From a virus: a DNA stretch of 21,800 nt. The notes beneath the pieces are model-generated. The model searched no databases and was not told the origin of the DNA. It was given only the letters and a program-made list of their open reading frames with translations. This document shows positions 2,829 through 3,611 of this stretch, piece after piece (positions within the stretch are counted from its first letter, which is position 1; each line of letters opens with the position of its first letter). Location: the IMG/VR virus record IMGVR_UViG_3300021254_000251, positions 1 to 21,800 of that record; one strand, given 5' to 3'. Position numbers and translations under genes: made by a program.

Positions 2829-3611
2829 TTATGTTACCTCTTTTTTAATAATAAATTGGCTATTTTCTAATAAATCCTCTAAATATAAATTGTTATAGTG
2901 CGTATATGGTATTCTAATTAAAATAATATTGTTATCAAAACAATATTTATTTTTTTCTTTATCATGCTATTGACGTTTTTCAAAAGATTCTTTTGTATCA
3001 AAGCTAAATACAGGCTTAAAATGCTGTTCTCCATCATATTCAATAATAATATTTTTATCTGGTAAATAAAAATCAAATCTAGGAGTTCCATTGGAGTCAC
3101 TAAATTTGAAGTCTTTAAATCTTTTTTGAGAAATAAAATTAATGTTATTCGTATTTAATATTTCTCTAATTTTTTGTTCTCCACGAGATTCTTTTACACA
3201 ACCGCAGCTTGTAGTGCTCCCTTGAGTAAGATTATTAGTATATATTTCATATATTTTTCCACAATCGCATTGAACTAAATATTTTGAATTACCGTTTATT
3301 GTGCCTATAAATTTAAGTACAGTTAAATGTCCAAATCTTTGACCTGATAAATCTTTTAATGTTTTACGTCGATTTTCTTTAGTTATACAACCACAAGAAG
3401 GAGTATCTCCTCTTCTTAAATTTTCTGTAGTGGCATAACAAATATTTCCACAATTACATTGACATTTCCATGTATTTTTATGAATATTGTTATAATACAC
3501 TTGATGTGCTTCATCTGCATATTCTAATACTAATAATCGTGAAAATCTTTGTCCTTTTAAGTCAATCCCTCTAAAGTTTTTTTTGGTTTTTGGTTTTATT
3601 GTTTTTGCCAT
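2829..3611 (-). CDS. DNA endonuclease: two tandem Cys-rich zinc-ribbon repeats plus a DUF559/Vsr-like PD-(D/E)xK nuclease domain. Contains an in-frame TAG at 2967..2969 that must be read as sense
   Basis: The ORF track stops at the TAG (2967). Reading on in frame gives 45 more codons (HDKEKNKYCFDNNIILIRIPYTHYNNLYLEDLLE...) that complete the domain begun at FDFYLPDKNIIIEYDGEQHF (DUF559-type E.DG..H...D..K...G..vlRi pattern). The frame ends at TAA 2829..2831, 2 nt from the RNA ligase ATG. Tandem repeats: GQRF..L.VL...W.C.C.CGN...NL..G.T.SCGC occurs twice. Confidence 0.6.

Follow-up and report, generated by a model that had tools for sequence, protein, structure and literature searches.

The window analysed here is a 21,800-nucleotide stretch of viral DNA (positions 1 to 21,800 of IMG/VR record IMGVR_UViG_3300021254_000251). 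On its minus strand, an RNA ligase gene now spans 1600..2826 and, immediately ahead of it at 2829..3611, a 783-nt open reading frame (ORF) of 260 codons (ATG 3611..3609, TAA 2829..2831) encodes a predicted nuclease with tandem DNA-binding repeats. A sequence-only reading of this DNA had proposed that the ORF is a mobile gene of the homing endonuclease type, wedged between the ligase gene and other genes. We find that the nuclease ORF is part of a 906-bp cassette (2792..3697, minus strand) that was recently and precisely inserted within the original ligase reading frame, carries a replacement for the ligase gene start, and has spread horizontally to one and the same site in diverged ligase genes.

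The inserted cassette and its empty site

Read along the minus strand, the cassette consists of an 86-nt leader, the nuclease ORF, a 2-nt spacer and a 35-nt replacement for the ligase 5' end, and its insertion point is codon 12 of the RNA ligase gene. Upstream of it, the native ligase start persists as a stub (3697..3732, minus strand), made of ATGCTTAATGCAAATAACGAAAGAGAACTTGCTTA and the first A of the insert. The stub encodes MLNANNERELA, and the TAA that closes its 11 codons is completed by that A. With it the native ribosome-binding site (AAAGGAGG, about 3741..3748) is retained, and the stub overlaps the stop of an upstream 56-aa ORF. Downstream of the nuclease, the replacement 5' end (2792..2826, minus strand; ATGTTAGATAAAAATGGCACTAGACAATTAGCATA) reads ATG TTA GAT AAA AAT GGC ACT AGA CAA TTA GCA TA, encodes MLDKNGTRQLA and runs in frame into the resident ligase body (1600..2791, minus strand), the presumed target gene, which matches PHA02142 OB-fold and RNA_ligase (Pfam, PHROG). 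A Shine-Dalgarno sequence for the replacement start (AAGAGG, about 2836..2841) lies within the last codons of the nuclease ORF. Because the cassette supplies a ribosome-binding site, an ATG and 11 codons, the ligase stays intact; the cassette repairs the damage done by its own insertion and is not merely intergenic. Bringing a substitute gene start is thus one way for such a gene to settle within coding sequence with neither intron nor intein. Standard pipelines would mis-annotate both the stub ORF (3697..3732) and the hybrid ligase start.

The leader (3612..3696, minus strand) holds a conserved AAATTTTTGGACA at the junction and, ahead of the nuclease ATG, the ribosome-binding site AAGGAG (3619..3624). 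When the leaders of the window and three related loci (L001, L003 and L089) were aligned, the window leader was 79-80% identical to those of L001 and L003. It contains an extended -10-like element, TTGTCATAAT, at 3659..3668, where the aligned L001 and L003 show TGnTATAAT. This motif is a putative promoter, and a simple sigma-70 scan did not call it.

The evidence for precise insertion comes from L005, a closely related phage contig (about 98% identical) that aligns to window positions 1..9849 at 97.5-99.4% and encodes a ligase 99% identical to that of the window. L005 positions 5569-6035 correspond to window 4164-3698 and positions 6022-8829 to window 2805-1, so that two window stretches are missing from L005: the 906-bp cassette, whose boundary is ambiguous by 2 nt (TA), and 111 bp at 4165..4275. 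In L005 the ligase reads straight across the junction (GCTTA|TGTTGTA). Its start is ATG CTT AAT GCA AAT AAC GAA AGA GAA CTT GCT TAT GTT GTA, and its 5' region includes AATGCAAATAACGAAAGAGAACTTGCTTATGTTGTAATT. The stub in the window (3698..3732) is identical to this ligase start at 35 of 35 positions, and the replacement start matches it at only 21 of 35 nucleotides and differs in 5 of 11 residues (MLDKNGTRQLA vs MLNANNERELA). The two ligase bodies are 97.7% identical in nucleotides. The window and L005 are thus polymorphic for presence or absence of the nuclease gene at a precise site, with the empty site intact, as is typical of homing endonuclease genes. For a free-standing homing endonuclease, they provide a natural before-and-after pair resolved to the base, from an uncultured phage in which TAG is recoded. 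The second missing stretch, 4165..4275 (minus strand), is a small indel of its own that encodes a 37-aa hydrophobic peptide, MDILFNIFIVVSFISLILCLIVLDIALITLIKNLIRK.

Base composition was considered as a sign of foreign origin and set aside as not decisive: the cassette has 25.1% GC vs 38.8% for the ligase body, and the neighbouring small ORFs are equally at about 25%. Codon preferences differ as well. The nuclease gene (25.8% GC) prefers CAA over CAG (10:1); the ligase gene and a vault-like gene at 4557..7046 (38.8% GC) prefer CAG over CAA (11:2 and 20:5, respectively).

Spread, distribution and decay among related loci

The distribution of the cassette was surveyed in 80 ligase loci retrieved from IMG/VR with the neighbouring RNA ligase as query. 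At least 70 lack the nuclease gene at the cassette site and only one (L061) carries it there, the remainder being cut off near the site. Further IMG/VR searches gave no matches to the junction pattern and eight pattern matches to peptides of P0001 (a nuclease 89% identical to the window protein), none of which was confirmed by tblastn. A metagenome scan for the cassette yielded three loci.

Where the cassette occurs, its organisation is the same. The order of stub, leader, nuclease and new start, with the junction GCxTA|AAATTTT, is found in L001, L002, L003/L004, L085 and L089, and L061 has a partial stub. The ligases beside these cassettes differ considerably: the proteins of L001 and L002 are 67-68% identical to that of the window, that of L061 63%, and those of L003 and L004 49%; on the L085 contig only 60 ligase residues are present, and L089 is a carrier with the same architecture. 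The nuclease proteins nevertheless reach 70-89% identity beside ligases that share 49-68%. At the nucleotide level, the window and L001 share 92.0% of the nuclease gene and 35 of 35 positions of the replacement start, as against 79% of the leader, 83% of the stub and 69.3% of the ligase body. The genes upstream are unrelated from lineage to lineage among the carriers. The element has therefore diverged less than the gene that hosts it and is found at one site in differing genomic surroundings; it has spread horizontally. The stub is local native sequence (a comparison made for the window vs L005 only), and the replacement start travels with the nuclease.

The ligase starts themselves record this history. 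Among unique ligase starts, 55 are of the native type (ML-N-..-ERELAY) and 11 of the type ML-D-..-G-(T/I)-RQL. All ligases linked to a cassette with a remnant have the latter, and some ligases with an RQL-type start have no nuclease. Two such loci hold decay products of the cassette. In L087 (4001-4210) only the last 70 nuclease codons are left, fused to the upstream ORF, beside an RQL-type ligase. In L056 (about 5980-6000) some 20 nt of the nuclease 3' end remain and hold the ribosome-binding site of the ligase, which again has an RQL-type start. Judged from these sequences, stages of invasion, decay and loss are all represented, as expected of a homing endonuclease gene.

A second clade of the nuclease family (40-50% identical) lies directly downstream of ligase genes (L054 1970-2674; L062 1706-2419; L079 7367-8080; L080 3913-4626; L091 3001-3900). 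No duplicated ligase C-terminus or 3' end was seen after the nucleases of L079 and L091. The L079 nuclease has several in-frame stops under the standard code.

Taken together, these observations lead us to read 2792..3697 as the cassette of a free-standing homing endonuclease, which invaded a phage RNA ligase gene at its 5' end, a reading to which we give a probability of roughly 85%. The mobile-gene proposal is strongly borne out by the empty site in L005, the sporadic distribution at the ligase site, the family matches and the Vsr/I-Bth0305I fold described below. Its idea of a gene wedged between neighbours needs adjusting, since the nuclease does stand between the ligase gene and small ORFs, and yet is actually inside the original ligase frame. 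As evidence of mobility goes, this is unusually clean, and the element belongs to a familiar class of selfish genes.

The nuclease domain and its family

The C-terminal part of the protein (aa 142-260; 2832..3188, minus strand) is a Vsr-like nuclease domain of the EDxHD type. It is about 120 aa long, contains FDFYLP...IEYDGEQH...(TAG)HD..K...LIRIPY, and shows six residues (D180, E191, D193, H197, D217 and K220) that are, like the Cys knuckles of the repeats, invariant among 65 aligned relatives. The window copy has every invariant Cys and catalytic residue intact. What appears to be the composite active-site signature of the EDxHD family (an Asp that binds metal, an acidic residue, a His as general base and a second Asp) is present.

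Family databases place the protein only in part. Pfam gives DUF559 and DUF2726 below their curated thresholds, and NCBIfam does the same. PHROG gives phrog_559 (E 5e-48) and phrog_374 (E 6e-34), both labelled 'HNH endonuclease', phrog_9084 'homing endonuclease' (E 1e-29) and phrog_7140 'intron encoded nuclease' (E 2e-21). An HNH endonuclease was rejected, as there is neither a Pfam HNH match nor an HNH motif and the Vsr-like fold is the sole nuclease fold found; the HNH label on phrog_559 and phrog_374 appears to be misleading, carried over from other members or domains. The structure was assessed with an AlphaFold model of P0001 (mean pLDDT 87.8), for which Foldseek ranked E. coli Vsr as the top match; the predicted fold is that of Vsr and I-Bth0305I. 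Comparison of the single sequence and of two family profiles with PDB sequences gave chance-level hits only and no profile match to a characterised member; neither 3R3P nor Vsr was reached by the family HMM profiles. With no sequence link to solved structures, the EDxHD assignment comes from the fold and from the third-party annotation of a homologue. That homologue, gp191 of Klebsiella phage Muenster, was found through a DNA-level match, is annotated 'homing endonuclease EDxHD, HHpred 3R3P 97%', and has the nuclease domain in common with the window protein and a different N-terminal region.

The cassette is thus predicted to encode a protein of Vsr/EDxHD fold with an intact active-site signature, which on the evidence of the model adds a new member to the EDxHD family. 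In its active site it has the Vsr/EDxHD variant known within the PD-(D/E)xK superfamily and not the classical PD-(D/E)xK motif. Relatives are numerous (1960 in a large protein database). They occur in 587 cultured-phage records, mostly phages of Firmicutes, of which 42 cover both repeats and nuclease and several are annotated as group I intron proteins. No related isolate genome was found, and cultured phages match at the DNA level only in a short conserved nuclease motif.

The DNA-binding repeats

Ahead of the nuclease domain stand two zinc-ribbon-like DNA-binding repeats, aa 14-78 (3378..3572, minus strand) and aa 84-141 (3189..3362, minus strand), which are 42% identical to each other (BLASTP E 2e-13). 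They correspond to repeats 2 and 3 of the long close relatives, proteins of 324-346 aa with three repeats; across the family, the number ranges from two to four or more. Both share the core spacing CxC-x18-CxC (C52/C54...C73/C75 and C115/C117...C136/C138), and C115, C117, G118, S135, C136, G137 and C138 are invariant in the alignment of 65 relatives. In the model of P0001, a three-repeat protein, the repeat equivalent to aa 14-78 is formed of beta-hairpins and a short helix, mostly with pLDDT above 85. Neither Pfam nor NCBIfam has a family for the Cys-rich repeats, the only match being a sub-threshold one to the CSL zinc finger. By its sequence, this appears to be a zinc-ribbon repeat array that lacks a Pfam model and yet is widespread in phages. 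As a scaffold for programmable nucleases, the combination of modular zinc-ribbon repeats with a small dimerising Vsr-like nuclease has some interest.

Several details of the sequence-only reading can be revised here. Its identical Cys spacing in two tandem repeats holds for the four core cysteines, with the exact 'C.C.CG' pattern in the first repeat only (the second has C.CG), and its repeat length of about 55 aa was too short against a measured 58-65 aa. Of its nuclease assignment, DUF559/Vsr-like PD-(D/E)xK, the Vsr-like part stands, the DUF559 match is sub-threshold and the classical motif gives way to the variant named above. Profile comparisons agreed with it on the nuclease (PHROG E 5e-48 to 2e-21, and the fold); the repeats are not AP2-like and have no Pfam family.

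Reading through TAG

Codon 215 of the nuclease ORF is an in-frame TAG (2967..2969, minus strand), the only one in the gene, two codons before the invariant D217. With the standard code the ORF ends at 214 aa; gene calling of that kind cuts the nuclease short and removes a catalytic residue. The window provides good reason to read on. All 18 of its main ORFs end in TAA or TGA and none in TAG, and 10 of the 18 contain in-frame TAG, with a maximum of 22 in one gene. These codons are distributed asymmetrically by strand, nearly all of them falling within the plus-strand block 7663..20946 at 1-22 per gene. Such a pattern indicates that TAG is not a stop codon in this phage. In other TAG-recoded gut phages TAG is read as Gln, and by likeness to them Gln is most likely its reading here.

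The 45 codons after the TAG are open, end at the usual stop of the family and are identical to P0001 in 40 of 45 cases; the residue that relatives show in place of codon 215 is Q, K, C, L, Y or E. Estimates of dN/dS are 0.20-0.24 for the nuclease vs four relatives and 0.13-0.26 after the TAG, values that point to purifying selection on the gene. A product of 214 aa would be without D217, K220 and the last beta-strand, so the full-length enzyme would need TAG read-through. The full-length nuclease gene of L001 has TAGs at two positions other than codon 215, which suggests that nuclease genes acquire TAGs while resident in recoded phages.

How the cassette may move

The homing endonuclease reading suggests a mechanism. 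On co-infection with a cassette-free relative, the enzyme would cut the ligase gene in its conserved native stretch around codons 3-13 (...AAT AAA AAT AAT GAA AGA GAA CTT GCW TAT GT...). The break would be repaired from the cassette-bearing genome, with the stub and the ligase body as left and right homology arms, respectively, and with these two arms the cassette could move between phages that have no upstream synteny in common. The displaced native start is closed by the junction TAA. Since the replacement start differs from the native one at 14 of 35 nt, neither junction would rebuild the target; with the start recoded and the site split, the carrier would be immune to cleavage. The paired susceptible and resistant ligase alleles predict a target of roughly 25-35 bp. 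Finally, full-length enzyme would be made only when the suppressor system of the phage is active. In its complete form, that is, a self-contained cassette that carries its own homology arms (a portable stub) and its own immunity and whose TAGs limit the enzyme to the suppressor-active phase, this scheme remains tentative, at somewhat less than even odds.

Several points weigh against the homing reading or against parts of it. Homing usually leaves a co-conversion tract, and at the right-hand junction none was detected in comparison with an L001-like donor. The location of the target is our inference from the insertion point and the allele differences. In L090 (3001-5254) a 60% identical nuclease stands directly upstream of a ligase whose start is of the native type (MLHNGVRELAY), and there is no stub, so not every member of the clade has a recoded start; L090 may represent an older, ancestral and purely intergenic arrangement. 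(A sigma-70-like gene is found upstream.) No tRNA, and hence no suppressor tRNA, was found within the window, and in the minus-strand block 517..7638 just one of nine genes, the nuclease gene itself, contains TAG. Lastly, the window copy has lost repeat 1 through an in-frame deletion of 71 codons at a short CAAT/AAT microhomology. With this lost repeat and the lone TAG of the minus-strand block, the copy could be on its way to decay.

Alternative explanations

The last two points are the basis of the strongest alternative, in which the cassette did arrive by homing and the copy is now inactive, a dead or dying relic heading the way of L087 and L056. The 71-codon deletion is unique to the window copy among the long close relatives, the TAG sits close ahead of the invariant D217, the other eight genes of the minus-strand block are free of TAG, and relatives provide clear products of decay. 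Against this, the invariant Cys and catalytic residues are all intact, the reading frame beyond the TAG is maintained to the family's usual stop, the phage reads through TAG in at least nine other genes, and the full-length L001 copy has two TAGs as well. The deletion also has a milder explanation, as repeat number varies naturally in the family and in-frame repeat deletions are known from homing endonuclease genes of phage ICP1 (PMC10448857). By sequence, the window copy appears to be a derived allele that has lost its first DNA-binding repeat. It may still cut, with its specificity changed, or may be entering decay; we lean slightly towards an active copy, and regard the relic as a serious though less probable state of affairs.

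A second alternative holds that the nuclease is not selfish but a functional partner of the RNA-repair module (ligase and AAA_33 kinase), acting in nucleic-acid processing or in competition with the host or with other phages. Both clades are indeed tightly linked to ligases, one upstream (window, L001-L004, L061, L085, L089, L090) and one downstream (L054, L062, L079, L080, L091), and there is a PADLOC match to HEAT_CxxC_PD-DEXK (E 5e-5). Tight linkage to a conserved gene is, however, also what target-site homing predicts. A partner would hardly be absent from the near-identical L005 and at least 70 other ligase loci, be far less diverged than the ligase beside it, or be tolerated in decayed form, and we consider this explanation improbable, notable as the twofold association with the ligase is. 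A role as a defence-system nuclease was rejected, the PADLOC match being weak and partial only.

An endonuclease encoded in a group I intron is the least probable of the three, and very unlikely indeed. In its favour, the native frame would be regained exactly if stub and body were joined, distant Staphylococcus phage relatives are annotated as group I intron proteins and I-Bth0305I is intron-encoded (PMC3239194). Against it, there is no Rfam match in 2700..3800 even at E <= 1, the non-coding part of the insert (86 + 37 nt, or 123 nt) is too little for a ribozyme core, no possible 3' boundary ends in G, and every cassette copy conserves a start, an in-frame ATG with its ribosome-binding site, that runs into the ligase. 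The ORF is therefore not placed inside a group I ribozyme, and the free-standing homing cassette remains the reading that we prefer.

Relation to known systems

I-Bth0305I (PDB 3R3P) is the prototype of the EDxHD homing endonucleases, a family that includes the free-standing Hef of T4-like phages; its catalytic residues are D196, H213 and D222, and mutation of D222 abolishes activity (PMC3239194). From order and spacing, we infer that D180, E191, D193, H197 and D217 of the window protein correspond to D196, an acidic residue, N208, H213 and D222 of I-Bth0305I. Like I-Bth0305I and Hef, the window nuclease has an N-terminal DNA-binding region, is phage-borne and mobile, and has conserved acidic and His residues at similar spacing. 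It differs from both in that this region is a Cys-rich, zinc-ribbon-like repeat array in place of NUMOD2/helix-turn-helix motifs, and from I-Bth0305I in being free-standing and not intron-encoded.

The organisation of the cassette resembles that of mobile ORFs in fungal mitochondria, which create gene hybrids in atp6 of Allomyces macrogynus and in atp6, atp9, cox2 and nad3 of Glomus (PMC3630166). In both systems the endonuclease ORF travels with a diverged copy of one end of its target gene, this foreign end replaces the native one in the expressed gene, and the native end is left behind as an unexpressed remnant identical to the sequence of a close relative. The phage case is a mirror image, as the phage gene receives a new 5' end (ribosome-binding site, ATG and 11 codons) and the fungal genes a new C-terminus. 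It also involves a bacteriophage and an EDxHD nuclease where the fungal elements encode LAGLIDADG or GIY-YIG enzymes, and its remnant is a closed 11-codon mini-ORF. With an endonuclease ORF, a foreign gene end and a native remnant, the window locus can be called a gene hybrid by analogy of organisation and not of common descent. In a limited search of the literature we found no phage in which an endonuclease cassette substitutes its own 5' end for that of the target gene.

The repeats have a counterpart in the T5orf172 genes of ICP1 and other Vibrio phages, free-standing homing endonucleases with repeated zinc-finger modules (PMC10448857). Here too, zinc-binding repeats are fused to a nuclease as 'beads on a string', the number of repeats shifts by in-frame recombination or deletion, and the genes lie at boundaries of genetic exchange between related phages. 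The nuclease is Vsr-like in our case and T5orf172/GIY-YIG-like in theirs, and the cysteines are arranged as CxC...CxC in place of the CapR-type CxxC...CxC; the window protein has no Pfam match to DUF723 or DUF4397. Relatives in Staphylococcus Kayvirus/Twort-like phages (e.g. the terminase intron ORF of Romulus/Remus) share both repeats and nuclease, with 30-34% identity over 80-89% of the query. Unlike the window gene, they are annotated inside group I introns of terminase or polymerase genes, have different target genes and belong to phages that use the standard code.

Neighbouring genes

The ligase gene appears to be part of an RNA-repair-like module (517..2826, minus strand) that also encodes an AAA_33/polynucleotide-kinase-like protein. 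Between the two lies the gene of a protein of 184 aa that is hydrophobic at its N-terminus and weakly matches choline-binding repeats; relatives add Metallophos phosphoesterases.

In related phages there are further candidates for mobile nuclease genes: in L001 a LAGLIDADG-like ORF with a DNA_topoisoIV fragment on either side (18971-20996), and in L003 free-standing GIY-YIG and PDDEXK_5 genes (972-1691 and 15322-15963). In L089, a 141-kb contig, FliD and flagellin genes at 1-823 and 6974-6990 flank the nuclease-ligase locus; this is either a phage that carries flagellar genes or a contig that is not purely viral.

Further along the minus strand of the window, the 829-aa product of 4557..7046 matches the shoulder domain of the Major Vault Protein (E 2e-23) as well as a Vault_3 repeat (E 3e-8). 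Its C-terminus is long and coiled-coil-like, neither PHROG nor PADLOC gave a match to the protein, and it is unusual for a phage. The 3' end of this vault-like gene also has a DNA match in L087.

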